This document shows, in pieces, positions 9,902-45,961 of a stretch of 64,000 nucleotides of DNA. Position 1 is the first letter of the stretch. Every line of letters begins with the position of its first letter. The notes under the pieces are model-generated. The model was not told the origin of the DNA and did no database searches. It saw only the letters and a list, made by a program, of their open reading frames with translations. Origin of the DNA: Candidatus Saccharimonadales bacterium (GTDB lineage Bacteria; Patescibacteriota; Saccharimonadia; Saccharimonadales; JANWIN01); the NCBI GenBank assembly GCA_038231155.1, contig JBBRLY010000016.1, positions 21,506 to 85,505 on the forward strand, given 5' to 3'. The translations under genes and the position numbers were made by a program.

Positions 9902-9917
9902 TGACGATATATCGTCA
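9902..9917. promoter_or_regulatory. Perfect 16-bp palindrome tgacgatatatcgtca, 19 bp upstream of the PadR start. It is a probable autoregulatory operator.
   Basis: The palindrome is read directly from the sequence. Confidence 0.5.
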
Positions 9918-9935
9918 TTAGATATACTTAAGTCT

Positions 9936-12288: not shown

Positions 12289-12335
12289 AAATATATAATA
12301 TCAGTCATAACCGAAATATTGCTGACAATATGACT

Positions 12336-12560: not shown

Positions 12561-12654
12561 ATTAGCTCCTTATCTATTTAGTATACTTACTAAATCAAAC
12601 CTTGATCTAACGAACTATAAGATGTCTAACATATACTAGGGTGTTACTTCGGTA

Positions 12655-13083: not shown

Positions 13084-13159
13084 TAGCTAATATTAGCATG
13101 CATATTTGCATCTAAATTAACTAGTAATTCTAGACATAAGTTGTTATAATATAGGTTAC

Positions 13160-13558: not shown

Positions 13559-13564
13559 AATTTA

Positions 13565-14041: not shown

Positions 14042-14137
14042 GGATGCGATTATAAATTAAATTTGGAATACTCACCAGCTCCACTCCCCCTAAACCTTAG
14101 TAGTAAATATATTCATCCCAGTGTAGTTGTCTAGTGA

Positions 14138-14749: not shown

Positions 14750-14921
14750 ATTCTATACCACCTTTTGCGTTGTAGCATTTCTAAGTTTATAAATTATCAG
14801 GATTCTTGGGAATTATATAATTTTAGGACATTATCTGAAAACTTATCGTGATGCTACTTTCCGTGTAAGTTAAATATATTATAGATAAATTGTTAAACTA
14901 AGGATTAATATATAAGAAATT

Positions 14922-15668: not shown

Positions 15669-15681
15669 CTGGTGAGTGCTT

Positions 15682-27750: not shown

Positions 27751-27825
27751 TGGTGACCTCAAGGGGAATCGAACCCCTATTGCCAGGATGAAAACCTGGT
27801 GTCCTAACCGTTAGACGATGAGGCC
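27751..27825 (-). tRNA. tRNA-Glu (anticodon UUC).
   Basis: A 75-nt cloverleaf is present with the T-arm GGTTCGATTCCCC and an encoded CCA. Confidence 0.85.
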
Positions 27826-28000: not shown

Positions 28001-29560
28001 TTAGCGACCGCGGCGGGAAAGCCATTTGCGGTGTAAGAATGCGCCAGCTAGTGAAGTGCCAGTAAAGACACCTAACACATCACCAGGACCGGTATTTACC
28101 AGTTTGGTGGGAGTTGTTGGAGGTGTAATAGTAGTCGAAGCAAAACTTACTGTGCTTGCACATTTATCGCTATCGACAGTCTGAACTTTACCGTTGACAT
28201 CAAAGTTTGTGGTTACATGAACATTGAAGTCACCGACATTAGCAAAGGTGTGTTCTACTGGGTTTTGGTCAGTTAATAGTGGGGCGGTACCGTCACCAAA
28301 GTTATATGAAAAACTTGTAACTTTAGCGCCGTTAATGGCAGTAGTATTAACGTTAACCCGGATCTGACGATCACCTATAGTTGTAATAGTTGCACTATCA
28401 CAGCTGAAGGCTGGGTTTTGTGGTTTTTTACATTCTGGACCATTTACATTAACATTTGCGGTATCGTTAACTGTACCTTGTCCACTAGGCGTAACAAAAG
28501 CTTCGTTAGTGAACTGTTTTGTACCACAATCCATATCTTTTGAAGCAGGTGTTTTAGTTTTAAGTAAAACAAATGCGTTACTGTTTGGATTGTAGGTACC
28601 AATATTTACGTTTACCTGACGACCGTTGGCTTGAATTGAGCTATCTGAAACTGTAAAGCCGTTAGGGCTATTGGTGTTGTAAAGCTTTACGCTACCAGGT
28701 ACTACGGTTAAACCGTTAGGTACTTGGTCAAGTACGGTTACGTTACCAAGCTGAGTACTACCAGTGTTATTGAAGGCAATACGCCATTCAACAGTTTGGT
28801 CAGGATTGGCAGTTACAGACTTTTTCCAGTCGTTAGAAGTTTGACCTTCAAAGCGTACGGCTTTAGTAACACTAAAGCTGGGTTTATGTACTTTAACTTT
28901 TATAGTTACGATACTAGAGAAGTTAAAACATCCAGGCACAATGCCATCTAGTTTGTTAAAACCGATGGGTGCACCTGTGGATACTATACTGTCACTTAGT
29001 TTCATACCAGTAGGTACAGCATTTGTGTACTGTACGGCAGAACCATTTTCGTAAGTTAAGTTAAAGTTACCATTGCTACCAAGATTTATAGTGTCGGCAA
29101 CTTCAGCTGGTGAAGCGTTAGAAGCACTAATGTAAGCGTTGGCACGCAATGCGTTAGCGTTTGCTGTTGGTAAGAATATGCGAACTTTGGTATCTTTAGC
29201 GACACCTTTACCGTCAAAGTTTGTACCATTTAAATTGTCAGCCGCATCATTGTGAACATACATGCGAAGTAACAAGTCTTGGCCATCTTTAAGGTTATTT
29301 ACAGTGTGGCTAAAGCCATTTGGTTGGGTGTTAGCAGCATCTTTGACTTCAAAGAATGCTCGTTCGTCACCTTCATCGGGGTTGTTTGTTATTGAGTCGA
29401 ACGTTACATGGTCAGAGGGTATCTGAACCGTGTAAGTGGGTCGGTTTGGAAACCAGGCGCGGGCCGCGCTAGTTACGCCTAAAATGGCGGCTATCAAGGC
29501 TACGGCTATAAGACCCTTTTTGGGCAAAACTTTAAAGATCTGCCTTAAAACATCTTTCAT
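28001..29560 (-). CDS. Large cell-surface protein with a signal peptide and a C-terminal sortase-type sorting signal.
   Basis: The C-terminus reads LVNTG + hydrophobic stretch + basic tail HRKWLSRRGR. The body is Thr/Asn/Val-rich and beta-rich. Confidence 0.55.
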   Translation of the reverse strand: MKDVLRQIFKVLPKKGLIAVALIAAILGVTSAARAWFPNRPTYTVQIPSDHVTFDSITNNPDEGDERAFFEVKDAANTQPNGFSHTVNNLKDGQDLLLRMYVHNDAADNLNGTNFDGKGVAKDTKVRIFLPTANANALRANAYISASNASPAEVADTINLGSNGNFNLTYENGSAVQYTNAVPTGMKLSDSIVSTGAPIGFNKLDGIVPGCFNFSSIVTIKVKVHKPSFSVTKAVRFEGQTSNDWKKSVTANPDQTVEWRIAFNNTGSTQLGNVTVLDQVPNGLTVVPGSVKLYNTNSPNGFTVSDSSIQANGRQVNVNIGTYNPNSNAFVLLKTKTPASKDMDCGTKQFTNEAFVTPSGQGTVNDTANVNVNGPECKKPQNPAFSCDSATITTIGDRQIRVNVNTTAINGAKVTSFSYNFGDGTAPLLTDQNPVEHTFANVGDFNVHVTTNFDVNGKVQTVDSDKCASTVSFASTTITPPTTPTKLVNTGPGDVLGVFTGTSLAGAFLHRKWLSRRGR

Positions 29561-30040
29561 ATGACCTCCTATATAGAGATTCATTAATTAAATTAAAAAA
29601 TTGTAATTGTTTGCTAAAAATATTTGTAAATTGTTAACGAACAATAACTGTCAAAGCCTCGCCTCTTATTGCGAACCCACCTTCACAGTTAATACATATT
29701 TTAGCACTACTATTACGATATGTCAATATTATGGTAATGTTTAATTGTTAAAGAACTGGCAAGTCAAATCATTACAAATCATAAACTTGGATTGCAGGTA
29801 TGGAATTGATTTGCGCGTTAGCGCGTGTCGCCGAAGCAACAATCAAATCCACACCTGCGGCGTGACTACATTGGGAAGGAATCGCCAGGCGACTCGACTT
29901 ATTACCCTAAACGAGCTGGTTTTTCTTGGCTTACCCAAGCGGCTTAACCAGCAACCTGCTGTCAGATTTATTAGCATGATAAACATGCAAGCACTGACAG
30001 GTGCTCTTTCTCCACCCGCTCGAGGACCTACTCCTTCTCC

Positions 30041-31141
30041 TTACGGAGACGGGACCGTACCGTTGACCGGCGTGGTTGGGGGAGTGGTTGCCGGAGGAGC
30101 AGCTGTGGTTGGGGGAGTGACACCCGTGTTGTCGCACGAGGGTTGCCCCGGCTTACCACAGCTTGGAACCGTAACCGAACCACCGCCCGTTGTTGTGGGA
30201 GTGGTATGCGGACACGTGCTCGGACAGCCGTCTTTGGTATCAACTGGACGTTGAGCCCCTTGGTTGATCTGTTGTTGGTTGTCTGGTGATGGCCGAGTCT
30301 TGCGCACCGAGTTCGGAATATTCGGATTCCGGTCGATGTTAAACTGCACCATCTTGGGACACAACCCATTCGGCGGTACGAACTGCCCGTTGGAACACAC
30401 CGGCGGACTACCGGGCGGCACTTGGCCAGGTGGAACCTCAATCGGCAAGGCCGGTGGCGTATTGCTACGCACTGGCACAACCAAATTGACGTTCGGGTTA
30501 CCGCAATCCGCTCGGACCGTGGCACCGAAGATGATCCGGCCGTTCCTGGTAAGGAACATCCAGAAGATATCGTTCGGACCCACCTGTCGCCATTGGCCGG
30601 ATTCTTCCAGAACCTTCCCGTTCATGAAGTATGTCGTACCCAGGATCTGGGACGCCACCTTCAATTGCAGCGGGAAGTAACCGGTGCCATTCAGGGCTCG
30701 CTTGACTTCGTCGTCGCCGTAACCAGCCTTGCGGATGGTATCAACAACTCGAAGTTTCGCGGCCCGACTGACAGCGGTGTTCTCGTTCAGGAATTCACCG
30801 ACTTGTTGTTGCGTCTTGAGAGTTCGCCTACTGAAAGCGGCAATCCCTCGCGACTCGGTACGCCCTTTGAACTGGACGTTATTCGAGCCGGTAACAATCT
30901 CACCAGGACGGTAGTGTTGGAATACGCCGTTGATCTGGTTGGCAATGCTGTTAGCATTGGTCGGTACGGTCGTTGTCGTGACCGATTTGGGCACAGTCAT
31001 GGTTGACGTAGTAGTGGTACTTGGCGCAATTGCCGCCATTACCGTTCGCGCATCCCCTGTTGGGATGCGGACTATGCCGAACACGGCTGCTGCAACGATG
31101 ACTGAAATGATCAGTCCGATCGTTCCAGTACGCTTGCTCAC
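30041..31141 (-). CDS. Exported Pro/Thr-rich protein with an N-terminal TM or signal helix (hypothetical), encoded in the GC-rich island.
   Basis: This is the longest ORF in the island, with a GC-rich third codon position and a C-terminal PT-rich tail. Confidence 0.5.
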   Translation of the reverse strand: MSKRTGTIGLIISVIVAAAVFGIVRIPTGDARTVMAAIAPSTTTTSTMTVPKSVTTTTVPTNANSIANQINGVFQHYRPGEIVTGSNNVQFKGRTESRGIAAFSRRTLKTQQQVGEFLNENTAVSRAAKLRVVDTIRKAGYGDDEVKRALNGTGYFPLQLKVASQILGTTYFMNGKVLEESGQWRQVGPNDIFWMFLTRNGRIIFGATVRADCGNPNVNLVVPVRSNTPPALPIEVPPGQVPPGSPPVCSNGQFVPPNGLCPKMVQFNIDRNPNIPNSVRKTRPSPDNQQQINQGAQRPVDTKDGCPSTCPHTTPTTTGGGSVTVPSCGKPGQPSCDNTGVTPPTTAAPPATTPPTTPVNGTVPSP

Positions 31142-31277
31142 GTCACACCTCCTCAGGGGTGATAGAGCCTTCGTCTCTCAACTGACAGCGCGGAGAGCTT
31201 TCGCGCCAACTGGTACTTCCCCAGTGTGATTACGGACAGGTTTAACGACATGTCATGGTCGCTCAGGTTCGGTCCTC

Positions 31278-31940
31278 TCACGTCTGCGCAGCGCGCTGAC
31301 GATTGAGTTGTTCGCACACGATGGCGCAAACCAAGCCGAACACGAAGAAGCCAACACCGGCGATGGCGAGCACCCAGATGGTACCAGGCACCCACTTCCA
31401 GTGGTGGACTTCATCGGTAACTGCCCAACGTGTCTTCAAGCCCACGAAGAGGCCAATCAGACCGCCGAGAACCGCGACCAGCTGGCACCAGAGGCACCAA
31501 CTGCGGGGGTCGTACGGCGAACGCTGAACTTGAACCAGTGGAACTCGGTCCGTCATGACGGCGGCTACGGGTTCAGCTGGCGGTACTGCTGTTTCACGAA
31601 CGGGACTGTCGACTGGAACACTTGGTGCCGCACCGGTCAGGGGAACAGTCGATGAAGACGGTTCACCATCAGGCTCAGGCTCCAATATGCTCGTTCGACG
31701 AGTGATGACGCGTCCGCGAACGATGTGCTCGAATTGCTCAGCTTCCTCTTCGAGAACTTCATCATGGTCGTCGATGTCACGCATTGCGGCGCGGGCACCA
31801 ATGACAACGTTGTTGCGCTCCCGATTCAATGCCTCACGGGCATGCTTGATCTCGTGATCGCGTTTTCGGGCAGCCGCGGCAAGTTCGCCGAGAGCTTTTC
31901 GGGCTTCTTCAGCAGCTTCTTCTATGCGGTTGGTACTCAC
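31278..31940 (-). CDS. Membrane protein with an N-terminal charged coiled coil and two C-terminal TM helices (hypothetical), encoded in the GC-rich island.
   Basis: ORF call. Confidence 0.45.
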   Translation of the reverse strand: MSTNRIEEAAEEARKALGELAAAARKRDHEIKHAREALNRERNNVVIGARAAMRDIDDHDEVLEEEAEQFEHIVRGRVITRRTSILEPEPDGEPSSSTVPLTGAAPSVPVDSPVRETAVPPAEPVAAVMTDRVPLVQVQRSPYDPRSWCLWCQLVAVLGGLIGLFVGLKTRWAVTDEVHHWKWVPGTIWVLAIAGVGFFVFGLVCAIVCEQLNRQRAAQT

Positions 31941-32335
31941 TTATTTCCTCCTCCTTGGCTGGGGATTTGGTCGGTTTTCGGCCGAGTCTGTTGGACGATT
32001 CGTCCATTCGGTGTCACCCGATACTAAAGTCCCTGGTTGGGAGTTCAGAACAGCACTCTGCTAGCAAAAGTAGCGAACAGGGTGCTGCTCTGATTAGAAG
32101 AAAAAGTAAGTAAATGTTTTTGGGTATGTAATGTAGTCACATACTGTCTTGGGAAGCGGAATGGTCAAAAGACCCCTCAACGCCTCAACCGAGGACAGAC
32201 CGCCTATTACTAGTTACCTCTGTTAGCTAGTATTAAATGGTCTGCCCTGAGTTCACCAAGAACAGATATGAACTGTAATGATTCGACTTGTTAAAGTGCC
32301 CTTCGCTTAAGCGGGAAACAGATAGGCTTAGATGA

Positions 32336-32489: not shown

Positions 32490-34700
32490 TTACGCGGCTG
32501 TAAGTTCTTTAGCTGGCTTTGCTTTCTTAGGCTCCAGTTTGATATGTCCAGGCACTTTTAATTTGTCCTTACTGAAACTAAACCCAAACGTACTGCCTTT
32601 GCCTTCGTCGCTATGAAAGATTATGGCGCCACCTTGGGCTACTACAACTTTTTGGGCCATGAAAAGACCAAGACCGGTACCATCGGGACGGGCTTTTTTG
32701 GCATTACCGGCCCGGTAAAACTTACTGAACAAATGATGCTGCTCGGCTTTTGGTACGCCAATTCCGTCGTCAACTACCATGAATTCGACTGTATCGCCTT
32801 TGTCGATCAATTCAATATCTATGTGGCCACCTGACGGAGTGTAATAAATAGCATTGTCTGTAAAGTTCATGACTACTTGTCGGATTTTAGTTTCGTCCAG
32901 CATTAGCATTGGGAAGTCTTTAGGCTTTAGATAAGTCACAGTCAGATTACGTGCTTTGGCAGTTTCAGTTAATTGTTGGATTTCACCTTTAACTAAATCT
33001 GCGAGATTTGTAGGTGCAGCATCTATTACGAATTTACCAGTTCGCAACCGGCTGACATTAAGAAGATCAGCAATTAAATAGACCATTCTCTGGGCGCTCA
33101 AGAATGACTGATCTAATAGTTTACGTTGAGGATCGCTAATCTTGCCGGCATCACCCTCTAACACCATGCTGACATAACCTTTAACAGTTGTTAAAGGTGT
33201 ACGTAATTGATGTGAGGCCATACTAATAAATTCATCTTTGGTTTCATCAAGATCCCTAAGTTTTTCGTTTGTCCTACGTAATTCTTTAGTCGCTAGCTGC
33301 ACTTTTTCTTGCAGCGTGATGTTAAATTGTTGGATTTCAAGATAGGCCTTTGCATTCGATATTGCGACTGCCAGTTCTGCTGCCAGAATTACTAAAATAC
33401 GTTGATCATCGCGGTTATAAATTTCACCGTTTAATTTTTCACCTAATAATAAGTATCCTACAAACTCATCGCGAGTATGCAAAGGAATGCTTGCTCTTAT
33501 ACCGTATTTTTCTAAAAACTGTTTTTCGACACCCTCTGAAATATCATCTACTAAAATATTTTTCTTACCAAGTACTGAAAGTTCATGAATTTGTTCCGAG
33601 CTATGGTTTAAAAAAACTTCTCCACCAAAAATAATTTTCTGTTGTTGTAATACCACAATATTGGCCGAACTTACTCGCATATGTTTTTTAATAAGCCTTG
33701 ATACATCAGTGGTTAACTCTTTCATATCTATCTCAGCGGCAAGAACCTTACTAACATCATCTAGTAATGATTGCGGATCATATTTATCACGATAAAAAAT
33801 ACTGTCTGTGAGTTTTTCGAAGAAACGTTTCAATGGTTGCAAACTAAAACCTAATATAAGCGCTAGGACTATATTTAATACTTTCTGTACGCGATTAATT
33901 TTTGAAGTATCGAATACTAAATTGCCAACCTGAAATGCAAATACACCATAAAGACCGGTAAGAGTTACAATTAACAAAAGATAAGTTATGGATTTTGCTA
34001 TAACACCACGGATGTCAAACAAACGATGTCGAACAATTGCATAAGTTGTAAGTCCAAGAAAAATAACCGTATACATAGGTATTAATGAAACTGTCGCATT
34101 AACCTTAAAAAGAATTACAGGTAGTAATACAGTCACTATTAGTAACCCTAAAAGAATCGATATTGCTAATAATGCATAACCGAATTGTTGTCTCTCTGTA
34201 TCTTTTGATCTTTTAAATTTTCTAAACAAAGTTATTACTGCCAAAAGACTAAAAATAGTTGTAACTAATGAGAAAATCCCAATACCGGGCCCAGGAACTG
34301 GGTGTGGTGAATTATTGATAACGATTACTTTAGTAAAAACTAAAGGTGTGAGAGTAATTACGGAAACAAAAACTGTAATTGAACCTACAATTAATAGCTT
34401 AGTTCGAGAAAATGAATATTCTTCCTTTGGTAAAGTAGAGGCAAACATATAGAACAATGCGCTCATTATTGACGCAAAAAAGAGACTCAACCGGATTAAC
34501 CAAAGGCTTTGTGATAAAAAGATCGGAAGCACTGATGTGAAGTTCGCGATTAACCACAAGCTTAACACTAAACCAAGTGCGGTATAGAGTCTGTTGGTCA
34601 CACTTTTTGGATTATTTTTGTAAACTAGAAACACTAAAAAAACATTTGCGAAAATTGCTGCAGCAACAATACTAACTTTGAAAATCAGGAATGGGCTCAT
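32490..34700 (-). CDS. Sensor histidine kinase with a multi-TM N-terminal sensor.
   Basis: It has ~7-8 N-terminal TM helices, the HisKA H-box SHQLRTPLT, and HATPase_c boxes including DDGIGV and GTGLGL. Confidence 0.85.
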   Translation of the reverse strand: MSPFLIFKVSIVAAAIFANVFLVFLVYKNNPKSVTNRLYTALGLVLSLWLIANFTSVLPIFLSQSLWLIRLSLFFASIMSALFYMFASTLPKEEYSFSRTKLLIVGSITVFVSVITLTPLVFTKVIVINNSPHPVPGPGIGIFSLVTTIFSLLAVITLFRKFKRSKDTERQQFGYALLAISILLGLLIVTVLLPVILFKVNATVSLIPMYTVIFLGLTTYAIVRHRLFDIRGVIAKSITYLLLIVTLTGLYGVFAFQVGNLVFDTSKINRVQKVLNIVLALILGFSLQPLKRFFEKLTDSIFYRDKYDPQSLLDDVSKVLAAEIDMKELTTDVSRLIKKHMRVSSANIVVLQQQKIIFGGEVFLNHSSEQIHELSVLGKKNILVDDISEGVEKQFLEKYGIRASIPLHTRDEFVGYLLLGEKLNGEIYNRDDQRILVILAAELAVAISNAKAYLEIQQFNITLQEKVQLATKELRRTNEKLRDLDETKDEFISMASHQLRTPLTTVKGYVSMVLEGDAGKISDPQRKLLDQSFLSAQRMVYLIADLLNVSRLRTGKFVIDAAPTNLADLVKGEIQQLTETAKARNLTVTYLKPKDFPMLMLDETKIRQVVMNFTDNAIYYTPSGGHIDIELIDKGDTVEFMVVDDGIGVPKAEQHHLFSKFYRAGNAKKARPDGTGLGLFMAQKVVVAQGGAIIFHSDEGKGSTFGFSFSKDKLKVPGHIKLEPKKAKPAKELTAA

Positions 34701-36613
34701 TTTTTGTCTTTAAAGAAGTTAACTACCTCTTTATTAAACAAATTGCTTTGTTCAAGTGTTGTTACGTGACCGGTTTCTTTAAACATTTTAAGCTTAACAT
34801 TTTTATCATCTCTGACCAATGAAGCAATTTTTTTTGAAGGCAACAATGGATCATTTTTTCCTAGTATTATAAGAATTGGTATTTTTATATGTTTGAGCTG
34901 GTTGATATAAAGTATATCGGGATTAAATTTAAAGCCCCGAGTTTGCCCATGCATAAATAATAAAGGATGGGATCGTTTATCTTGTCGAACTGCATCATAA
35001 TAATAATCCACAAATTGCTCAGTGATTATTTTTTTATCATAAACTGCTGATTGCAAAAATTTTTTCATATTTTTTCGAGTCGGTTTAACGGCAGTTTTTG
35101 TAAGTATTCTGGTAAAACGTCGTGATGCAATTGCTCGTTGCTTAAATGGAATTTTCTTTATTAATCCTAAGGGATTTACTAGTACTATTTCAGATACTAA
35201 TTCAGGCGAAGATATTGCCAGCTTAGCTGCAATAGCAGCACCGAATGAATGGCCAATAATATAAGTATTCTTTAAGTTTTCTTTCTGAATAAATTTTCTT
35301 ACAACATCAACATAATCCTTTTTAAAATCTGCTTGACTGTAGTCAAATCGCGTTGATTGACCACTTCCCGGTAAATCTAACGCATAAACTCGATATTCTT
35401 TTGCTAAATGATTAATGTTTGGAAACCATTGTGCCCAGCCAGTATTGGCACCGTGTAGCAGTATTATTGGTTGACCTTCTCCGGCAACAATATAATGTAT
35501 TCTATACTTTCCTAGACTCATAAATTTATTAACATAGGAAGATTTTAGAAATTCAGCAGGAATAGTAATTTTATCTGTTGATTTAATTTGAATTTCAGAT
35601 CTTCTTGGGCTATGAATTGTACTTGTGTTTACTCTTATCATTCTGAAAAACATCTGAGGAAACTTCTTTGTGTCTTTGAAATGTGTGTGTAGTTGGCTTC
35701 TGTATTTCGTCTCTATTAATGCAGCCATTGGTCCAAGACTAATATGAAAGTTGGTAGATTTTAACGCCAGTTCTTCATAAACTTTGCCACTTTCTATCCA
35801 GTCTTTTGGTTCATCGTGAGTAGTTGAGATAAGCCCAAGTGCGGAGCTCTTTATTGTTTGTTCCAAATACTTTTTGGCAAATATTTTCATTGACTTTGGC
35901 ATATGTTTCATTAGTGTCTTGCCGACAACTACTTTCCCTGTTGTTAGCCCACTTACTTGACCAGTCATTCCATCACCACTGGTTGTTTTGTTAGGTCGCA
36001 TCCACATTGCAAGTTCTCGGCCAAATTTAGGAACTTTAGAATAGCTAGCTGCGGCTTTATAAACGTCTTGTGCCAAATCATGAATTTTAGTTTTTTCTTT
36101 AGTAATGGATATCGCAGTATCTCTAGAAGGGTTAATTTTTAGTTTTGCCCATTCACTATCGCTAATTTTTACTGGTTCCGATATTCTTTTTTCTGAATAG
36201 CGATTTGGGATTGCTTCAAACAACCTACTATTAAGTTGATCTGAATCCTTAGAATTAAGCGTAAATATCATTTCAATTTTTGCATTGTTTTTTCCAGTTG
36301 TTATAATTTTTTCTTCAATATTTAATTCAAAATATTTTGCGGCAACCTGAATATTAAATAAGCAAGCCCCTAAACTTATATAAAGATTGCGGCCAGATGG
36401 ATCGGCTTCAGGTAGTTTAAGTTCAATATTCGGATTGATTGTGAGCTGGTTTGAATTTATTTCAAACAACCAAGGCTGAGTGTTATGAGTAGATGGGGCT
36501 AAGATGCCATAACCTATTAGAAAACGGATTTTATCTTCAATAGAACCATTCTTAGGAAAGTTCTTAGCCTGAATATCCCATGCTTTATAATTATCTTGTT
36601 GTTTATGCTTCAT
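34697..36613 (-). CDS. Fusion protein: N-terminal nitroreductase-like (Acg/SagB-type) domain plus C-terminal alpha/beta-hydrolase.
   Basis: The N-terminus has the nitroreductase signature LAPSTHNTQPW. The C-terminus has a GHSFG nucleophile elbow in an alpha/beta-hydrolase fold. There are 4-nt overlaps with both neighbours. Confidence 0.55.
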   Translation of the reverse strand: MKHKQQDNYKAWDIQAKNFPKNGSIEDKIRFLIGYGILAPSTHNTQPWLFEINSNQLTINPNIELKLPEADPSGRNLYISLGACLFNIQVAAKYFELNIEEKIITTGKNNAKIEMIFTLNSKDSDQLNSRLFEAIPNRYSEKRISEPVKISDSEWAKLKINPSRDTAISITKEKTKIHDLAQDVYKAAASYSKVPKFGRELAMWMRPNKTTSGDGMTGQVSGLTTGKVVVGKTLMKHMPKSMKIFAKKYLEQTIKSSALGLISTTHDEPKDWIESGKVYEELALKSTNFHISLGPMAALIETKYRSQLHTHFKDTKKFPQMFFRMIRVNTSTIHSPRRSEIQIKSTDKITIPAEFLKSSYVNKFMSLGKYRIHYIVAGEGQPIILLHGANTGWAQWFPNINHLAKEYRVYALDLPGSGQSTRFDYSQADFKKDYVDVVRKFIQKENLKNTYIIGHSFGAAIAAKLAISSPELVSEIVLVNPLGLIKKIPFKQRAIASRRFTRILTKTAVKPTRKNMKKFLQSAVYDKKIITEQFVDYYYDAVRQDKRSHPLLFMHGQTRGFKFNPDILYINQLKHIKIPILIILGKNDPLLPSKKIASLVRDDKNVKLKMFKETGHVTTLEQSNLFNKEVVNFFKDKK

Positions 36614-37743
36614 GACTTTTCCATCAACTTTTTAAGTATGACACCCCTTTTACCATTTCCACCAAACTCATTACTATCAAATTTAAATAGTTCAGAAAAT
36701 TTTATAAAGTACCGATCCGATTTAATATCGCTACCAAGTAAAATTTGACGAATCAAATAAGCGGCAAGTCCACTGTCAACAGCAATAGTGCTATATAACT
36801 GAGGACGTCCAACCAGTGTTTTACCAATGTGAATTAAAGTTTCAAGGGCTCTGGTTGGTATATACTTTACCCCAACTATTTGCACTGCATATCGTTTTAT
36901 GTCTTCGGGTGAAATATATTCATTCTTTAAGATGTTGTCAGCAACGTTGCCAATTGCACCATTGAAAATCTCTGGCTGAGGTGACAGATCATAGCGTTCA
37001 ATATCTACCAAAATATTGTCACCTAAACTGGTAAACATAAGAAGTGGTAATTTGTTTTGTTTGGCTTTTATTCGAAGTAATACTTTCATTTTAAAGTCGT
37101 CAATTTCATCAATTATGATGCTAAGACTGGGGTCGTTAAAGAACTCATCAATATTGTCTTTATTTAGACCTTTTGGGAAAGTTTGTATTTGACTAAATGG
37201 ATCAAGTTCCCAGATGGATTGGCTAGCTAAATCTACCTTGGCTAGACCAATATTAGGTAACGATTCACGAACACGGTTAAGATTAGCGGTTTCTAGTTCA
37301 TCGAAGTCAGCCAACTTCAAGTTTTTGGCAATGCCTGAATATACGGCACCTATAGCTATACCAGCACCGACTGACATCCCAGCTACTCCAATAACCGTAT
37401 TATGAAGTTTAGTCTGTTCCTCACTAGTAATTAGATTTTTATTGCGGTTCGTCCGTAGTTCAAACAGTTCATTAGGTCCAACGCAATGAAGTAAAATTCC
37501 TGACCACGGATAATAAACCCAAGCATCGATAGGTGATAGTACGCCGTTCATTCCTAGATTTTTTTTATCTCGCTCGCTAGCATTGTTGGATGGGTAGCGG
37601 ATTTCAAGAAGTTCTTGTAGTTGATTCTTATATATGTCAACTTCGCGCCAAATCTTTTGCTTTTTTAGGCGTTCGACATCGTAAGCCGAGTACTTACCCG
37701 GCAATAGCACAATTGGTCGCTGATTATTTATTTCTGTACCCAT
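36610..37743 (-). CDS. ThiF/MoeB/E1-like adenylyltransferase with a ~110 aa N-terminal extension.
   Basis: The Rossmann motif VIGVAGMSVGAGIAIGAVYSGI...DFDELETANLNR is present. Confidence 0.6.
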   Translation of the reverse strand: MGTEINNQRPIVLLPGKYSAYDVERLKKQKIWREVDIYKNQLQELLEIRYPSNNASERDKKNLGMNGVLSPIDAWVYYPWSGILLHCVGPNELFELRTNRNKNLITSEEQTKLHNTVIGVAGMSVGAGIAIGAVYSGIAKNLKLADFDELETANLNRVRESLPNIGLAKVDLASQSIWELDPFSQIQTFPKGLNKDNIDEFFNDPSLSIIIDEIDDFKMKVLLRIKAKQNKLPLLMFTSLGDNILVDIERYDLSPQPEIFNGAIGNVADNILKNEYISPEDIKRYAVQIVGVKYIPTRALETLIHIGKTLVGRPQLYSTIAVDSGLAAYLIRQILLGSDIKSDRYFIKFSELFKFDSNEFGGNGKRGVILKKLMEKS

Positions 37744-39245
37744 TTTTGCTTGGTTCCGACTTTAAAATATTGAGGGTCTTCATATAGGCTCAGGTGGATG
37801 ACCGGTTTAACATCATTTTGAACCATGCCGAAAACTTCACGATATTCAGAGCTTTCTTCAATCAAATTATTGTGAATGGCTTCTTGGATGCTCGAACTTA
37901 ATTGGTCCGATTCACTAACTCCATACTTCATCTCACAGTAAATATGTAGTTTTTGTCTCCCCTGTTTATCATAATCGACAAGTATAGTAAACTTTCCAGT
38001 CAGAAAGTTGTCAAATCGCTTGATTTGTAGAGCTCGTCGGATCATATCGGGATATATTAAAAAGGCATAGTAACTAACACTTAGGTCGTTACGTTCGTAA
38101 ATGTATAAAAACGGTAAGTTCCAAAGAGTATGATTAATACCGGCTTTTTTTAGATTGTTCTTATAATCATCCATTTTTAGATCCAGTTTTTGGTAAACTT
38201 CATCGTGAGTCAGTAGACCTCCATAATCTTTGAGATCATAACGCACTAATGGGATGCCACTATAAGCAGTACAAAACAAATTGTAGTTTACCTCTTCAAA
38301 GTAAAATAATTCGGGGTTATATTGCGTAAAGGTAGCTTGACGTTGTTTTTCAGGAAATAGTTTATCGAGCTGATTGTCCTTAACCATTTGGCGACGGATG
38401 TATATCGACTCTGGTGTTTCATGAGACATCGTTCCCATATCGGCGGTACCATAGTGGTTTAAGCTAAACATAAGCTCATTATCAGGTTTTACAGTATCAA
38501 TCACATAATCACGAAAGCGTTCAGTAAAAGCTTCAGCTGAAAACACAAAACCAAGTTTATATTTAGACCAATTGATACCGTCGCGAGTCCCATCATCCAA
38601 AATATCTTTTAAAAACGGTGCATAGGCTCCAATTATAATTTGGTCATAGCTACTACCGAGTTGTTTAACGGCGTTTATTACTTCCTGTTTATGAATTCCA
38701 GGAGTAATGATGCTTAGGTCATAGCTGTTGTACTGAGCAATAATCTTTAAGGCTTCATATGTAAATACACCGCCAATCCATGCCCCCATCGGGAAAGCTA
38801 CAATATATAAGGTCGTTTTCTGGTGAACTTTGAAATTTGATCTTAAATAAAGCTCAGCCATAATTGCATACTGCATATCTTGTAAATGGTTGCGCGGAAA
38901 ATAATAAGGTTGGCCAGTACTACCGGATGTTGAAGATATTATCCATTGGCCATGTGGAAATTCTCCATCCCAACAGAGCATTTCTTTGGGATATTTGCGT
39001 AAGTAGTTATCTTTGTCGATCGGGGGAATTTTATAAAAATCTGCAATGCTCTTAACAGACGAAACTGACAATTTATGTTGTTTTAAAAAATCTTTATAGG
39101 CCGGAACTCCCCTAGCCATGGTTTTAAATAAATTAAGAGCTCGTAATTCACCTCGGTGACGCCATGACTGCTCTGACTCGCTTTTTAATTTTTCAAGCAA
39201 AGTCTCGGCATTTCGATAACCTCTTGGCAGCAATAGTCTAGACAT
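37728..39245 (-). CDS. Phenylacetate-CoA ligase (PaaK/F390-synthetase) family adenylate-forming enzyme.
   Basis: The AMP-binding P-loop SSTSGSTGQP is present, and the size and pattern fit the PaaK family. Confidence 0.65.
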   Translation of the reverse strand: MSRLLLPRGYRNAETLLEKLKSESEQSWRHRGELRALNLFKTMARGVPAYKDFLKQHKLSVSSVKSIADFYKIPPIDKDNYLRKYPKEMLCWDGEFPHGQWIISSTSGSTGQPYYFPRNHLQDMQYAIMAELYLRSNFKVHQKTTLYIVAFPMGAWIGGVFTYEALKIIAQYNSYDLSIITPGIHKQEVINAVKQLGSSYDQIIIGAYAPFLKDILDDGTRDGINWSKYKLGFVFSAEAFTERFRDYVIDTVKPDNELMFSLNHYGTADMGTMSHETPESIYIRRQMVKDNQLDKLFPEKQRQATFTQYNPELFYFEEVNYNLFCTAYSGIPLVRYDLKDYGGLLTHDEVYQKLDLKMDDYKNNLKKAGINHTLWNLPFLYIYERNDLSVSYYAFLIYPDMIRRALQIKRFDNFLTGKFTILVDYDKQGRQKLHIYCEMKYGVSESDQLSSSIQEAIHNNLIEESSEYREVFGMVQNDVKPVIHLSLYEDPQYFKVGTKQKWVQK

Positions 39246-39365
39246 TTAAGTTCCCTATACTTCAAATTGTAGCACGCCACCATAAAACCATTGTTTATGT
39301 TGTATTTTGACTAAATCATTATATTATGGGTATAATACGTAAAGTATAGTAAAATAAAGAACTAA

Positions 39366-40487
39366 ATGTCATTTATTGCAAATCGTTTAAATTATTTTGA
39401 TAGTAGTGATTTTAGAGAAGTTTTTAATAGACAACAACTATTAAATAATCCTGTAGATTTAAGTGTTGGTGTGCCCGAAGAACATACCATGGATAAGGTA
39501 AAAGAAGCTGCTATTCGGGCTATTAAAGAAGATAAAACCGTCTACACGCCAGCAAATGGGATTAAAGAGTTGCGTAAAGCAATTGCTAATAAACTGAAAT
39601 CTGAAAACGGGATTAACTGTGATGAAAATAGCGTAACAGTTGTACCGGGGTTAACTACGGGTCAATTACTAATTTATATGGCTATTTTGGACCCCAGCGA
39701 CGAATTAATTGTAATGGACCCCTACTATCCACCATATAATTACCTGGCCAGTGCTATTGGTGCCCACGTCACTTTGGTACCATCACTGCCAGACTTTCAG
39801 CCTAACTTACATTTAATCGAAGCTAGTATTACTGCTAGAACAAAGGCAATTGTTATTAATTCACCGAGTAATCCAACCGGCGCTGTATATTCGGAAACAA
39901 CGTTACGAAAAATTGCTCAAATTGCTGAAGAACATAATTTATTAATTATTTCTGATGAAATTTATGAACATTTTGTCTATGAAGGCAAGCACTTTAGTAT
40001 TGGTAGTATTTATCCAAATACATTAACGCTTAATGGATTCAGTAAGGAGTTTGCTATGACAGGCTGGCGTATTGGTTATATTGCTGGGCCTCCTGATATT
40101 ATTGAGGCTATTAATGAGCTCCAGCAATATGCAGTCTTTTCATCTTCATCGATTGCGCAGTATGCGGCACTAGCGGCTTTAGCAGATCGTCCACACATTA
40201 ATGGTGTATATAAGAATAAAAGAGATATTGTTAAACATGCTTTAGCGGAAATGGGCTATGAGGTGTTTGGCATGCAAGGAGCATATTACAGTTTTATTAA
40301 GACACCAGGAGATATCGTTGATGTAGAATTTGTAGAGAAGTTGGCTAATCATAACTTAATTTTAGTCTCCGGACGAGCATTCTCTAGACTGCAAGGTTTT
40401 GTAAGACTTTCTTACGGTGCTCCATTGAACGAAGTCCAAAAAGGACTTAAGATTTTATCAGAAGTAACAAAAGAATATCGTAATTAA
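39366..40487 (+). CDS. Class I/II PLP-dependent aminotransferase.
   Basis: The motifs NSPSNPTG and SKEFAMTGWRIGY (PLP-lysine region) are present. Confidence 0.8.
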   Translation: MSFIANRLNYFDSSDFREVFNRQQLLNNPVDLSVGVPEEHTMDKVKEAAIRAIKEDKTVYTPANGIKELRKAIANKLKSENGINCDENSVTVVPGLTTGQLLIYMAILDPSDELIVMDPYYPPYNYLASAIGAHVTLVPSLPDFQPNLHLIEASITARTKAIVINSPSNPTGAVYSETTLRKIAQIAEEHNLLIISDEIYEHFVYEGKHFSIGSIYPNTLTLNGFSKEFAMTGWRIGYIAGPPDIIEAINELQQYAVFSSSSIAQYAALAALADRPHINGVYKNKRDIVKHALAEMGYEVFGMQGAYYSFIKTPGDIVDVEFVEKLANHNLILVSGRAFSRLQGFVRLSYGAPLNEVQKGLKILSEVTKEYRN

Positions 40488-40613: not shown

Positions 40614-40982
40614 ATGGCCCAGACAATTGCAATTGTTGAGGATGACCAATCCATCAGGGATATGTACCGGCTTAAATTTGAAGCCGATGGATATAAGGTG
40701 GTGGTCGCCAGTAATGGCAAAGAAGGTTTAGTGCTAGCTGAAAGATCTAAACCGGATGTAATTTTACTTGATCTAATGATGCCGGAAATGACTGGTGATG
40801 AAATGCTTAAGGCCATGCGTAAAACAGATTGGGGTAAAAATATAAAAGTTATCATCTTGACCAATGTCAGCAAGGATGAAGCCTATCCAATTGTTAACCC
40901 TTTGGGAGTATCCGGTTTTGTGATTAAAGCCCATTTTACACCTCAAGAAGTGGTAGAAAGTGTTAAAAAAGTCTTGGTCTAG
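40614..40982 (+). CDS. Stand-alone response-regulator receiver (CheY-like).
   Basis: The acidic pocket DD and the phospho-acceptor region LLDLMMP are present, with no output domain. Confidence 0.8.
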   Translation: MAQTIAIVEDDQSIRDMYRLKFEADGYKVVVASNGKEGLVLAERSKPDVILLDLMMPEMTGDEMLKAMRKTDWGKNIKVIILTNVSKDEAYPIVNPLGVSGFVIKAHFTPQEVVESVKKVLV

Positions 40983-40984
40983 TT

Positions 40985-41347
40985 ATGGCTAAAGTTGCAA
41001 TAATTGAAGATGATGTAGCCATCAGCCAGATGTACCGGCTTAAGTTTGAGCAAGAAGGTTACACAGTCGAAACTGCCGCTAATGGTAAGTTGGGCTTAGC
41101 GCTAACAGAGTCTATGAAACCGGATATTATACTGCTAGATCTAATGATGCCGGAAATGACTGGAAGTGAGATGCTCGCAGCAATGAGAAAGACTGATTGG
41201 GGTAAAAATATTAAAGTGGTTATTTTAACTAACATGGGTGAGCAGGAAATCCCCGAGGAAACTAAAAAGTTAGGAATTGTAGCCGCAGTATTAAAAGCCG
41301 ACATGACCCCTCGCCAAGTTGCTCAATTAGTTAAAGCTCATCTTTAA
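40985..41347 (+). CDS. Stand-alone response-regulator receiver (a tandem paralog of the preceding gene).
   Basis: It is ~60% identical to the upstream receiver, and the gap between them is 2 bp. Confidence 0.8.
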   Translation: MAKVAIIEDDVAISQMYRLKFEQEGYTVETAANGKLGLALTESMKPDIILLDLMMPEMTGSEMLAAMRKTDWGKNIKVVILTNMGEQEIPEETKKLGIVAAVLKADMTPRQVAQLVKAHL

Positions 41348-41386: not shown

Positions 41387-42730
41387 ATGAAGATTGCGAT
41401 TTTGGGCTTTGCCCGTGACGGACAAGCAGCTTATGAGTTTTTAAATCGTGATGGCAACAGCATTACTATCTGCGATCAAAATCAAGATATTGTTGTTCCA
41501 GCTGGTACTTCTAGTCAACTAGGCCCTGATTATCTTAAAAACTTGGCACAATACGATTTAATTGTCCGCACTGCTGGCTTAGCGCCGCATTTAATAACTG
41601 CAGTTAATTCAAACTCTATTGATGTTTTACAAAAAATAACCGGTAATATTGATCTGTTTTATAAAAATAGTCCAACTAAAAATATAATCGGAGTTACCGG
41701 TACAAAAGGTAAAGGTACTACAAGTACTTTGATTGCTAAAATGCTAGAAGCGGCTGGTAAAAAAGTGCACCTAGGTGGCAATATTGGCATCCCGGCACTA
41801 GATCTACTCAAAAATAATATTCAGCCTGATGATTGGGTAGTACTTGAACAAGGAGCATTTCAATTAATAGACCAGCAGCACTCTCCAGTTATTGGCGTTT
41901 GTTTAATGGTCGAACCAGAACATATGGACTGGTTCAAAGATATGGATGAGTATCTAACCGCTAAACAACAAATGTTTATTCATCAAGGTACTAACGATGT
42001 AGCTATATATAATGCCATAAGCCAAAATTCCAAAACAGTTACAAGTGTTAGCCCCGCTAAAAAGATTCCATATATGGAAAAGCCTGGTGCTTACATTGAA
42101 GGAAGTTCTATAGTAATTGATGGACAAAATATCTGTCAAACAAATGAATTAAAACTGCTTGGTGAGCATAACTGGCAAAACGTTTGTGCAGCTGTGACTA
42201 CTGTTTGGCAAGTTACCCAAGATAATAAGGCTATTAAAACAGTCCTAACTAGTATTACGGGATTAGAACATCGACTGGAATTGGTTCGTGAATTTAACGG
42301 AGTTAAGTATTATGATGATTCATTTGGCACGACACCGGAAACGGCAATTGTTGCCATCGAGGCTTTTGACATGCCAAAAGTCGTAATACTTGGCGGTTCA
42401 ACCAAACAATCGGACTATACTAAACTTGCCGCGGTCCTGGCCAAGAGCGCCATTCGGCAAATTATATTAATCGGAAATACGACCAATCCGGACTATAAAT
42501 CAGCCGCGCCAGAAATTGAGTCTGCACTTAATGCTCAAGGAATTAAGCAAATTACTTCACTGGTTAAACCTGGTAAGACCAGCATGAACGAGATTGTTCA
42601 GGCCACTCAATCAGCTTCCCATCCCGGAGATGTAGTTTTACTATCTACAGCTTGCGCAAGTTTTGACTTATTTAAAGATTATAAAGATCGCGGTGAACAG
42701 TTTAAGCAAGCTGTGTTAGCACTCGTCTAA
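41387..42730 (+). CDS. murD: UDP-N-acetylmuramoylalanine--D-glutamate ligase.
   Basis: The Mur ligase P-loop GVTGTKGKGTT is present. Confidence 0.85.
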   Translation: MKIAILGFARDGQAAYEFLNRDGNSITICDQNQDIVVPAGTSSQLGPDYLKNLAQYDLIVRTAGLAPHLITAVNSNSIDVLQKITGNIDLFYKNSPTKNIIGVTGTKGKGTTSTLIAKMLEAAGKKVHLGGNIGIPALDLLKNNIQPDDWVVLEQGAFQLIDQQHSPVIGVCLMVEPEHMDWFKDMDEYLTAKQQMFIHQGTNDVAIYNAISQNSKTVTSVSPAKKIPYMEKPGAYIEGSSIVIDGQNICQTNELKLLGEHNWQNVCAAVTTVWQVTQDNKAIKTVLTSITGLEHRLELVREFNGVKYYDDSFGTTPETAIVAIEAFDMPKVVILGGSTKQSDYTKLAAVLAKSAIRQIILIGNTTNPDYKSAAPEIESALNAQGIKQITSLVKPGKTSMNEIVQATQSASHPGDVVLLSTACASFDLFKDYKDRGEQFKQAVLALV

Positions 42731-43367
42731 GTTGTTCAATTACCGGTTGTTCGGGCTGTAAAACGGTAGCCCGACCGGCAACAATATCTTTTATAAGCTG
42801 TTCGATCCAGTGATAGTGAGTACAGCCAAGAACAATAACGTCAGCTCCGGCTTGGCAGCCGGTTTCAATCCGCTTGTTTATTTGGTCTCGATTAATCTGG
42901 TTATTTTCTATCATTGGCACCCAATCGCTACAATCAGGCTCCAAAACTTTTAGGTTTTTAGCAAAGACTTTTTTAAGTGAACTGTAGCGTGCACTAGCTA
43001 AAGTATTAGGTGTGGCGCAGACGGCAATGATACCGCTTTTAGTTAAACTGGCAGCCGGTTTAACCATTGGCTCCATACCAACTAAAGGAACGCTGACCTC
43101 TTGACGCAACGTATCTATCATAGTGGTGGTTACGGTATTACAAGCAATTACAATTACCTGGCAGCCTTGATCAACTAAGTCTTTCAGTATTGGTAAAACA
43201 TAGCCATGAATTTGGCGCAGTGGTTTATTGCCATAAGGTAGATGCCGTTTATCGGCTGCGTAGATAACTCTATATTCAGGCAAAGCCGCTTGTATAGCTT
43301 TGGCCACCGAGAGTCCGCCAACGCCACTGTCAAACACACCTATCTTAGGTAAGGGCTTGCCTCCCAT
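42702..43367 (-). CDS. murI: Glutamate racemase.
   Basis: The motif IGVFDSGVGGL and two Cys-containing active-site loops are present. The start is trimmed to an internal Met to avoid a 60-nt overlap with folD. Confidence 0.8.
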   Translation of the reverse strand: MGGKPLPKIGVFDSGVGGLSVAKAIQAALPEYRVIYAADKRHLPYGNKPLRQIHGYVLPILKDLVDQGCQVIVIACNTVTTTMIDTLRQEVSVPLVGMEPMVKPAASLTKSGIIAVCATPNTLASARYSSLKKVFAKNLKVLEPDCSDWVPMIENNQINRDQINKRIETGCQAGADVIVLGCTHYHWIEQLIKDIVAGRATVLQPEQPVIEQLRRVLTQLA

Positions 43368-43374
43368 GACACCT

Positions 43375-44202
43375 TCACCGTATTTGGTCATTTTTCTTTT
43401 CGCCATTTCGTTGTGCCGCAAGTATGACATTTTCAAACAAAGCCGATACAGTTAAGGGGCCAACACCACCTTTTTCTGGGGTGATGGTTAAATCATCACG
43501 TTCATATACTGCTGGATCTAAGTCTCCTACGGTTTTGCCGGATTCACTAGCTACACCGGCATCTACTACTACGGCACCGTGTTTAATCATTTTTGAATAT
43601 AAAATAGCTGGGCTACCAGTTGCGGTAATAATAATGTCGGCGTTTTTGGTATGTACCGATAAATCTTTTGCGCCTCTATCGATAACTTCAACGTCCAAAT
43701 CAGATTGTTTTAGCATTTTTTCAAGTGGAGCACCGACTAATTTACCACGGCCAATAAGTAGTATGTGTTTACCATTCAAATCAATATTAAATCCAGATAA
43801 CAACCACATAATTGCCATAGGTGTAGCTGGGCTGTATTGGGCTTTTTGGCCTAGAGCATCAACGTCTTTATGAGGGGCTACCATATTCACTATTTCTTCT
43901 GTTTTATCAGGATCGGGTAGCGGTAGCTGCACAATTATGCCATGAACCTTATCGTCTTTATTTAATTGTTCTAATAGTTTTGGTACCTTACCTTGGTCAA
44001 TAAAATGCACGGCTACATCAATTAGAATGTCGGTACCGTAACTTTTTTTAAGTCGAACGTAAGTGTTAATTACCGGATCATCCAGGCATTGTACAATGTC
44101 TAGTTTAGGGTAAACATCGTGGCCTTGACGTAGAGCCCGGACTTGCCCAGCTTGGCGCTGTTTGATATAGCCAGCTAGTTCACGGCCACTTAATAATTTC
44201 AT
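43375..44202 (-). CDS. folD: Bifunctional methylene-THF dehydrogenase/cyclohydrolase.
   Basis: The FolD size and conserved motifs are present. Confidence 0.85.
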   Translation of the reverse strand: MKLLSGRELAGYIKQRQAGQVRALRQGHDVYPKLDIVQCLDDPVINTYVRLKKSYGTDILIDVAVHFIDQGKVPKLLEQLNKDDKVHGIIVQLPLPDPDKTEEIVNMVAPHKDVDALGQKAQYSPATPMAIMWLLSGFNIDLNGKHILLIGRGKLVGAPLEKMLKQSDLDVEVIDRGAKDLSVHTKNADIIITATGSPAILYSKMIKHGAVVVDAGVASESGKTVGDLDPAVYERDDLTITPEKGGVGPLTVSALFENVILAAQRNGEKKNDQIR

Positions 44203-45884: not shown

Positions 45885-45961
45885 GGGCCATTAGCTCAGC
45901 TGGTTAGAGCACCTGCCTCTTAAGCAGGGTGTCCAGGGTTCGAGTCCCTGATGGCCCTCCA
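45885..45961 (+). tRNA. tRNA-Lys (anticodon CUU).
   Basis: A 77-nt cloverleaf with perfect acceptor stem gggccat/atggccc, an encoded CCA, and the T-arm GGTTCGAGTCC is present. Confidence 0.9.

Follow-up and report, generated by a model that had tools for sequence, protein, structure and literature searches.

Here we describe a gene cluster from a Candidatus Saccharimonadales bacterium, belonging to the Candidate Phyla Radiation (CPR, Patescibacteria), found in a 64,000-nt stretch of DNA (hereafter the window; positions 21,506 to 85,505 of contig JBBRLY010000016.1, assembly GCA_038231155.1). The cluster consists of a minus-strand operon encoding a PaaK-fold ligase, a ThiF-like enzyme, a flavin-dependent oxidase (FDO) fused to an alpha/beta hydrolase, and a histidine kinase with a seven-transmembrane (7TM) domain, together with divergent genes for an aminotransferase and two receiver-only regulators. 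We put the probability that this locus is a CPR variant of the oxazolone biosynthetic pathway, equipped with its own two-component system, at roughly 55%. Judged by alignment, the ThiF protein and the FDO domain are a split, colinear homologue of the oxazolone synthetases TrzS and OxzB (the Rv1355c family), and the wide conservation of the gene set suggests that a small molecule derived from an amino acid is probably produced, and perhaps also sensed, by the cluster. Oxazolone synthetases were discovered in 2021 and extended to mycobacteria in 2023–2025; the new elements here are a putative starter ligase of PaaK fold, a partner enzyme that recurs and converts an amino acid, and a 7TM kinase dedicated to the cluster, in a variant found CPR-wide.

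The open reading frame (ORF) map places on the minus strand the ligase gene (37728–39245, 505 aa), the ThiF-like gene (36610–37743, 377 aa), the oxidase-hydrolase fusion gene (34697–36613, 638 aa) and the HisKA_7TM kinase gene (32490–34700, 736 aa). The fusion protein is made up of the FDO domain (residues ~1–345; 35579–36613, minus strand) and the alpha/beta-hydrolase domain (residues ~356–638; 34697–35548, minus strand). The ThiF start codon lies within the final 16 nt of the ligase gene, giving a 16-nt overlap, and the ThiF/fusion and fusion/kinase junctions are ATGA stop/start overlaps of 4 nt each. An earlier note on this DNA, made from the sequence alone, had described four minus-strand genes overlapping by 16, 4 and 4 nt, with which the ORF map and the junction sequences agree; its domain identifications for the ligase, E1-like enzyme, flavoenzyme-hydrolase, kinase, aminotransferase and receivers all hold in Pfam, NCBIfam and Foldseek comparisons. 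On the plus strand lie the divergent class I aminotransferase gene (39366–40487, 373 aa) and the tandem pair of receiver-only regulator genes (40614–40982 and 40985–41347). The 120-bp gap between the operon and the aminotransferase gene (39246–39365) is a putative divergent promoter region, where the top sigma-70-like matches of the 31.8–41.5 kb interval fall: TTGACT-18-TATAAT on the plus strand (39307–39336, 11/12) and ATGACA-18-TATACT on the minus strand (39372–39343, 10/12), both being consensus matches only.

The kinship with oxazolone synthetases is carried by two adjoining proteins. The 377-aa protein is a ThiF protein (PF00899, E 9e-16, the model the earlier note had proposed as a check) with an N-terminal extension of ~95 aa. 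It matches the NCBIfam model NF005901, 'Rv1355c family', over positions 25–340 of 722 (E 3e-84, 283.5 bits), whereas the ThiF, MoeB and TcdA models give at most 65 bits. Among solved structures the closest is that of TcdA, a dehydratase acting on tRNA that likewise produces an oxazolone ring (PMC12596934). Ordinary ThiF/MoeB sulfur-carrier activation was considered and rejected, since those models score 4–7 times lower than the Rv1355c family; no conserved ThiS/MoaD-like gene lies nearby, which speaks further against it.

The flavin oxidase, a member of the nitroreductase superfamily whose gene adjoins that of ThiF with the 4-nt overlap, is an Acg-family flavin mononucleotide (FMN) oxidoreductase (residues 32–339, E 1e-54, 186–188 bits), and Acg (2YMV) is its sole relative in the PDB. 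The domain also aligns with positions 370–653 of NF005901 (75.8 bits), downstream of the part matched by ThiF. Pfam gave only a weak nitroreductase match on the 638-aa protein. When the domain was scanned alone at E ≤ 10, it matched, apart from one chance match, only PRK14851 and the Acg and Rv1355c families, and never SagB/TIGR03605. The SagB-like dehydrogenase proposed in the earlier note therefore gives way to the Acg and Rv1355c families, and a reading of the pair as SagB/TOMM (thiazole/oxazole-modified microcin) machinery is ruled out by this and by the lack of a YcaO among the ORFs scanned in 28.0–45.8 kb.

In an alignment of the concatenated window ThiF and FDO sequences with ThiF-FDO fusions of CPR bacteria, of Dyadobacter (NCBI 'Rv1355c family') and of proteobacteria (OxzB-like), the window pair is colinear with the fusions. 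The ThiF residues R100, N101, G122, G126, D146, D148, N154, N156, R157, K169 and D215 (the last in a DEIDD motif) are invariant, among them the classical ATP-binding and adenylation residues of E1 enzymes, and in the FDO part the APSxxNxQPW motif (APSxHNTQPW) and R138 are invariant. The equivalence of D215 and R138 to the TrzS sites (D217, R540 and Q651 in TrzS) is claimed at motif level only, the homologue search having returned no mycobacterial TrzS. The N-terminal extension, which the earlier note had pointed out, is shared with proteins of the Rv1355c type and is lacking in those of the OxzB type. The fused CPR proteins match NF005901 from position 24 to 713 of 722, with 396 and 453 bits.

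The chemistry of these relatives has been shown biochemically. Rv1355c, now TrzS, turns N-acyl tryptophan into N-acyl tryptazolone in two steps, a cyclisation that depends on ATP and then a desaturation that depends on O2, and oxazolones are broken down by acid and by alcohols (PMC12856293); TyzB and TyzC, which are two distinct enzymes, perform the same cyclisation and desaturation (PMC10404671), and OxzB carries out the same oxazolone-forming chemistry on N-acyl amino acids (bioRxiv 10.1101/2020.06.11.147165). The earlier note had suggested a modified metabolite or a peptide signal. A small molecule linked to a kinase fits the co-conservation described below; N-acyl amino acids are the substrates of the characterised relatives, which makes a peptide unlikely here.

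The conservation of the cluster was assessed by scanning the ligase alignment against one genome per GTDB species, which gave 47 loci, nearly all from Patescibacteria and spread over several classes. Window proteins were mapped onto six-frame ORFs, and the denominators below are the loci with enough flanking DNA. ThiF adjoins the ligase in 45/45 loci and a HisKA_7TM kinase lies downstream in 37/39; an aminotransferase is found upstream of the ligase in 34/45 loci and a receiver gene upstream in 36/44, the receiver gene lying directly after the kinase rather than upstream in distant CPR classes. The FDO is present between ThiF and the kinase in 26–27 of 42 loci, and the alpha/beta hydrolase, fused or adjacent, in 8/42. 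The earlier note had named a lack of co-conservation elsewhere as the outcome that would speak against its proposal; given the ligase-ThiF and kinase counts, the opposite was found over these loci. The nitroreductase-hydrolase fusion, which it had listed among the four operon genes, is the least conserved part and does not belong to the core. The six-function cassette is kept in Saccharimonadia and in Gottesman-, Doudna-, Adler-, Lipton-, Roizman- and Paceibacteria lineages.

Gene fusions tie the same functions together. The FDO may lie on either strand, be fused to ThiF (L026, L027, L035, L058) or to the hydrolase (the window), or precede ThiF (L051). Ligase-ThiF fusions occur (P0122, L036), also in the reverse order ThiF-ligase (P0225), as do a dehydrogenase-ligase fusion (P0137) and a dehydrogenase-ligase-ThiF triple fusion (P0187). 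In three metagenomic loci (L058, L059, L061), receiver(s), amino-acid dehydrogenase, ligase, ThiF, FDO, hydrolase and 7TM kinase are all encoded on one strand. A metagenome scan was keyed on the FDO motif and for that reason gave mostly stand-alone Acg-like FDOs, 17 of its 80 loci being informative.

In the oxazolone clusters described so far, the synthetase has an N-acyltransferase as its partner, OxzA, TyzA or TrzA (bioRxiv 10.1101/2020.06.11.147165; PMC10404671; PMC12856293). No such enzyme adjoins the window pair, the conserved neighbours all falling in other families. In the Motiliproteus locus L055, an Acetyltransf_5/FeeM gene stands beside the OxzB-like gene; used as a phmmer query against all ORFs of the window and of 58 loci, the OxzA of L055 matched itself only, in a search made with this query alone, TyzA and TrzA not being among the queries. 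Because no OxzA homologue was found and the ligase is always adjacent, we propose the ligase as the substitute, and it would be the obvious stand-in.

The 505-aa ligase has no Pfam match, AMP-binding included, and in NCBIfam only weak N-terminal matches to FlxY, PaaK and F390 synthetase, FlxY being the top one with 25 bits. Its AlphaFold2 model (pLDDT 83.8, pTM 0.85) is closest to PaaK1/PaaK2 in the PDB (Foldseek E 1e-19), followed by BT_0428, 2-hydroxyisobutyryl-CoA ligase (HCL) and ClxA (9s3l). The P-loop TSGSTGxP, the motifs YGTxD and RYxLxD and the C-terminal Lys499 are invariant in 26 homologues, giving the window ligase a PaaK-type ANL fold with both the P-loop and the C-terminal catalytic lysine. 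Against the PaaK equivalog NF041878 it scores 24 bits, where the cut-off is 700. The earlier note's PaaK-like call is thus valid at the level of the fold only: by score and context the ligase is not a PaaK orthologue. Bona fide phenylacetate catabolism is ruled out by the low PaaK score and by a neighbourhood of ThiF, FDO and kinase genes with no paa genes. A search of 1.84 billion representative proteins returned 1554 ligase-related clusters at 50% identity, 472 of them at E<1e-30, and the named members were all Patescibacteria; on these sequence matches, the family is CPR-specific. We propose that the ligase is the starter enzyme, activating an aryl or 2-oxo carboxylic acid. The PaaK-fold enzyme ClxA forms amide and ester bonds straight from acyl-AMP, independently of coenzyme A (CoA) (PMC12519233), and by this precedent CoA-independent formation of an N-acyl amino acid by the ligase would be chemically plausible.

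The gene beside the ligase suggests where the acid may come from. The divergent gene product is a class I/II aminotransferase (Aminotran_1_2, E 7e-65 in Pfam). In other CPR lineages it is replaced by a ScyB-like dehydrogenase or by a 4-methylideneimidazole-5-one (MIO) lyase/aminomutase, sometimes fused to the ligase or to ThiF. The fused dehydrogenases are nearest to the tryptophan dehydrogenase ScyB (E 1e-78 to 1e-82). In L054, the fusion partner of ThiF is an MIO enzyme whose scores exceed the cut-offs of both tyrosine 2,3-aminomutase and histidine ammonia-lyase, and the fusion gene is followed by the ligase, FDO and 7TM kinase genes. Since three different amino-acid enzymes occupy one functional slot, we infer that the slot enzyme supplies the substrate, most simply a deaminated aryl acid that the ligase would activate; the amino acid concerned is probably aromatic.

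The 736-aa kinase has an N-terminal 7TM domain (PF16927 HisKA_7TM, residues 12–230, E 1e-10) followed by HisKA (5e-15) and HATPase_c (9e-24) domains in Pfam, with a weak GAF-like region adjoining the 7TM domain. The two receivers (Response_reg, E 5e-22 and 4e-21) have no output domain and are likely its partners. Among the loci, taking ligase similarity as a proxy for relatedness, the similarity of the kinase catalytic domain to that of the window follows it (Spearman 0.72), whereas the similarity of the 7TM domain does not (rho 0.08). The 7TM-domain score has instead a median of 187 bits in loci with the hydrolase and of ~100 bits in those without it (Mann-Whitney p 1e-4), and in the same comparison the GAF-like region showed no hydrolase effect. 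The similarity of the 7TM domain therefore tracks the presence of the hydrolase and not phylogeny. Such a correlation is as expected under ligand-specific co-evolution, although linked recombination may give the same result.

The hydrolase domain itself (Abhydrolase_1, E 6e-26 in Pfam) has the meta-cleavage-product C-C hydrolases HsaD and BphD as its nearest solved structures (E 1e-25) and contains the motifs of a catalytic triad (the Ser of GHSFG, the Asp of NDP and the His of GHV). Speculatively, it may be an accessory tailoring domain that opens or transfers a reactive ring.

Taken together, these data suggest the following pathway. The aminotransferase would turn an amino acid, probably an aromatic one, into a 2-oxo acid, the ScyB-like dehydrogenase or the MIO lyase/aminomutase doing the equivalent job elsewhere. 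The ligase would adenylate the acid and join it to an amino acid through the latter's amino group, either directly, as ClxA does, or via CoA, giving an N-acyl amino acid and replacing the acyl-CoA-dependent OxzA/TyzA/TrzA. By homology to TrzS, TyzB and OxzB, the ThiF enzyme is predicted to adenylate the carboxylate of the N-acyl amino acid and cyclise it to a 5(4H)-oxazolone, which the FMN oxidase domain, as a homologue of TyzC and of the C-terminal part of TrzS, would desaturate with O2. The fused hydrolase might then open or transfer the reactive ring. Finally, co-conservation suggests that the 7TM kinase and the receivers could either detect the product, which would be hydrophobic and labile, or govern its synthesis.

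Several points weigh against this pathway. All of its chemical steps are drawn from homology or gene context, and the product of the ligase may be either an amide or a CoA thioester. The equivalog cut-off of NF005901, 476 bits, is reached neither by the window pair (283.5 + 75.8, ~359 bits) nor by the CPR fusions (396–453 bits); we treat the window proteins, scoring below it, as a related subfamily rather than as members of the curated equivalog, and for the same reason their substrate and product may differ from those of TrzS. About one third of the species have no oxidase in the cluster, so the core of ligase, ThiF and kinase may make a saturated oxazolone or something else. The MIO enzyme is possibly an aminomutase and not a lyase, which makes it less likely that the slot enzyme supplies a deaminated acyl donor. 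No kinase adjoins the ThiF-FDO fusions of TrzS type in high-GC metagenomic loci. The correlation of the 7TM domain with the hydrolase could also stem from physical linkage, through a recombination tract that takes in the hydrolase gene together with the kinase gene's 5′ end, and bit scores against a single reference approximate phylogeny only roughly.

Among the alternatives, the one that survives best accepts an oxazolone-type product and places the difference in the kinase: the kinase and receivers would do no more than control the operon on an unrelated cue (host contact, envelope stress or oxygen, for example), and the product would serve as an antimicrobial, membrane lipid or stress protectant and not as a signal. 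Two-component genes often adjoin operons under their control; antibiotics induce oxazolone production in proteobacteria (bioRxiv 10.1101/2020.06.11.147165) and the tyz genes are tied to oxidative-stress resistance (PMC10404671), while the kinase-free metagenomic fusion loci also fit this alternative. It is a possibility to be taken seriously, albeit one we consider improbable, for the regulators are receiver-only and lack a DNA-binding output, which would be atypical for simple control of an operon, the kinase gene sits within the operon and is translationally coupled to the enzymes, and the similarity of its 7TM domain tracks tailoring enzymes.

The most far-reaching form of the oxazolone pathway proposed here would be a self-contained small-molecule signalling circuit, widespread in Patescibacteria, in which an aromatic-derived labile oxazolone is made, received by the 7TM kinase and passed on to the CheY-like receivers. 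We put this forward tentatively and regard it as rather unlikely in this complete form. If true, however, it would be the first candidate for an autoinducer or host-sensing system of CPR bacteria, and the 7TM kinase would be the first receptor proposed for oxazolones.

A further alternative is that the core of ligase and ThiF does another job, with the oxidase as an occasional add-on: two successive ATP-dependent carboxylate activations might build a dipeptide-like or cell-wall-related amide, or the pair might salvage and activate aromatic acids taken from the host. A saturated oxazolone (azlactone) is by established chemistry an activated acyl donor, which would suit such a role, as would the ~15 of 42 loci without an oxidase in the cluster, the murD, glutamate-racemase-family and folD genes adjoining the Saccharimonadia cluster, and the GCS2 carboxylate-amine ligase gene neighbouring another ThiF-FDO locus. 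We nevertheless find this quite unlikely: in other CPR classes the murD synteny is gone while the ligase-ThiF-kinase set stays, the ThiF-FDO fusions in the same cluster type (L026, L027, L035, L058) tie ThiF to the oxidase, and genomes without a local oxidase may encode one elsewhere.

Least probable, to the point that we give it very little weight, is a RiPP/TOMM-like maturation system (RiPP, ribosomally synthesised and post-translationally modified peptide) in which the E1-like enzyme and a SagB-like dehydrogenase modify a ribosomal peptide sensed by the kinase, since, even though ThiF-like enzymes do work in RiPP pathways (PMC12250964; PMC12596934) and the N-terminal extension of ThiF could in principle bind a peptide, the flavoenzyme has no SagB match, ThiF scores 283 bits on a family acting on small molecules and at most 65 on other ThiF models, the extension is common to Rv1355c-family fusions, the gene overlaps leave no space for a precursor ORF, the recurrent partners are enzymes of free amino-acid metabolism, and, as the earlier note had also found for YcaO, Pfam scans of the ORFs in 28–45.8 kb gave neither a YcaO nor a precursor peptide.

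Next to the cluster, a murD-like ligase gene (41387–42730), an Asp/Glu racemase-family gene (42702–43436, minus strand) and folD (43375–44202, minus strand) form a flank whose synteny is kept in Saccharimonadia (L003, L004 and others) and is not seen in other CPR classes. On the other side, directly 3′ of the kinase gene, the 29900–32100 stretch has ~57% GC in a genome of 40% GC. It contains two minus-strand ORFs, 30041–31141 (366 aa) and 31278–31940 (220 aa), with transmembrane segments and Pro/Thr/Ala-rich regions and no Pfam match; a homologue of the 366-aa ORF (47% identity) lies 3′ of the kinase gene in L007. An rRNA origin of the high GC at 30–32 kb is ruled out, as the stretch has no Rfam match. 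The only Rfam/ARAGORN matches in the whole window are a tmRNA (13160–13558), tRNA-Glu(TTC) (27751–27825) and tRNA-Lys(CTT) (45885–45961). A 527-aa protein with PKD and DUF11/CLIPPER-type repeats is encoded at 28001–29584 (minus strand), and repeat surface proteins like it are found 3′ of the cluster in several related loci.

Some of the other loci are of interest in their own right. In the complete genome CP064992.1 (L001/L020, ~8700–15800), the cluster looks decayed: the aminotransferase is in two pieces, ThiF consists of a 271-aa call and a fragment, the FDO is split, truncated and on the opposite strand, and the kinase is split into 7TM and catalytic parts. The explanation is either ongoing loss of the cluster in the lineage or frameshift errors in the assembly. 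A 372-kb contig labelled Actinomycetota (CAVRAP010000021.1, L045) carries at 10000–13600 an island of 54–57% GC, between flanks of 65–70% GC, with a CPR-type ligase gene (apparently frameshifted), ThiF, a short FDO and no kinase, with a gene for an ArdC primase in the vicinity. Its ligase shares 55–58% identity with Saccharimonadia versions, and the island may be the outcome of horizontal exchange between an actinobacterial host lineage and an epibiont. In Dyadobacter sp. CY343 (L053, 5143–12627), an Rv1355c-family ThiF-FDO gene is followed in its operon by genes for a 232-aa protein, a 7TMR-DISM kinase, a hybrid kinase and a receiver, a further receiver gene being divergent upstream; an oxazolone-synthetase homologue is thus tied to 7TM sensing outside the CPR. 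The 232-aa protein, which may or may not be TrzA-like, had no Pfam or NCBIfam match. Other ThiF-FDO fusion genes lie beside a tryptophan-halogenase-family gene and a large Ser/Thr kinase-ATPase gene (L056, 4369–8259) or beside genes for a 653-aa protein and a GCS2 carboxylate-amine ligase (L057, 4019–9495), so that the first and tailoring steps seem to vary among such clusters.

CPR bacteria have tiny genomes and little biosynthetic capacity, and a six-function cassette kept across their classes would be an unusual investment. The locus extends the homologues of oxazolone synthetases to a new phylum and suggests an ATP-dependent, possibly CoA-independent, route to their N-acyl amino acid substrates. 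The Saccharibacteria that have been cultivated grow on Actinobacteria, and no group is richer in TrzS than these; the system could for that reason bear on the interaction between epibiont and host. The 7TMR-DISM linkage in Dyadobacter and the island on the actinomycetotal contig hint that the theme reaches beyond the CPR and may move between epibionts and hosts. Both groups that characterised the synthetases call the role of oxazolones, which are labile, unknown, and both raise signalling (bioRxiv 10.1101/2020.06.11.147165; PMC12856293); the present locus offers a concrete pairing for their function, a product and a co-transcribed 7TM kinase. The earlier note had not recognised the gene combination as a described system. 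This does not hold for the ThiF and flavoenzyme pair, which is of the described oxazolone synthetase type; for a CPR cluster joining a PaaK-fold ligase, ThiF/FDO and a 7TM kinase, we found no published description in the literature.

The cluster can be compared with known systems at several levels. In CqsA/CqsS and LqsA/LqsS/LqsR, the genes for the signal-making enzymes, a pyridoxal-phosphate enzyme among them, lie next to those for a receiver protein and for a histidine kinase that crosses the membrane several times. The gene arrangement is akin to that of the window cluster, but the proteins are not homologous, and for the window kinase it is only by context that we infer ligand sensing. The FlxA/FlxY pair (names from NCBIfam), an aromatic amino-acid lyase and a PaaK-like aryl-acid ligase, is mirrored by the MIO enzyme and ligase of L054; the flexirubin pathway, however, proceeds on a polyketide synthase, whereas the window cluster has ThiF and FDO instead. 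ClxA and NatL2 (PMC12519233; PMC9400959) have the PaaK fold in common with the window ligase and make C–N or C–O bonds from an acyl-adenylate without CoA, the chemistry proposed for the window ligase, although the likeness of ClxA to it is at fold level only and ClxA joins aminohydroxybenzoates for benzoxazoles.

The synthetases themselves offer the more direct comparison. OxzA/OxzB (bioRxiv 10.1101/2020.06.11.147165; locus L055) have ThiF and nitroreductase-superfamily domains with ATP and FMN motifs in common with the window proteins and use, as the window cluster would, an amino-acid-derived substrate. OxzB-type proteins, however, lack the N-terminal extension and are only 19–20% identical to the window proteins, and OxzA (Acetyltransf_5/FeeM) is encoded in L055 but was not found in the window. 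In TyzA/TyzB/TyzC (PMC10404671), ThiF and FDO are encoded by separate adjoining genes and the first enzyme of the pathway is divergently transcribed, both as in the window; TyzA, in contrast, is an acyltransferase with the fold of N-acyl-homoserine-lactone synthases that uses acyl-CoA, and the tyz cluster has no ligase, hydrolase or kinase. TrzA/TrzS (PMC12856293) come from an actinobacterium and not a Saccharibacterium, and the place of TrzA is held in the window by the PaaK-fold ligase. The trzAS genes adjoin cyclic di-GMP (c-di-GMP) genes, whereas the window cluster is co-operonic with a 7TM kinase. TrzS is one protein, while the window ThiF and FDO are encoded by two genes, the FDO being fused to the hydrolase, although fused forms exist in the CPR too. 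Common to TrzS and the window proteins are the N-terminal extension of ThiF and the order of ThiF followed by FDO.

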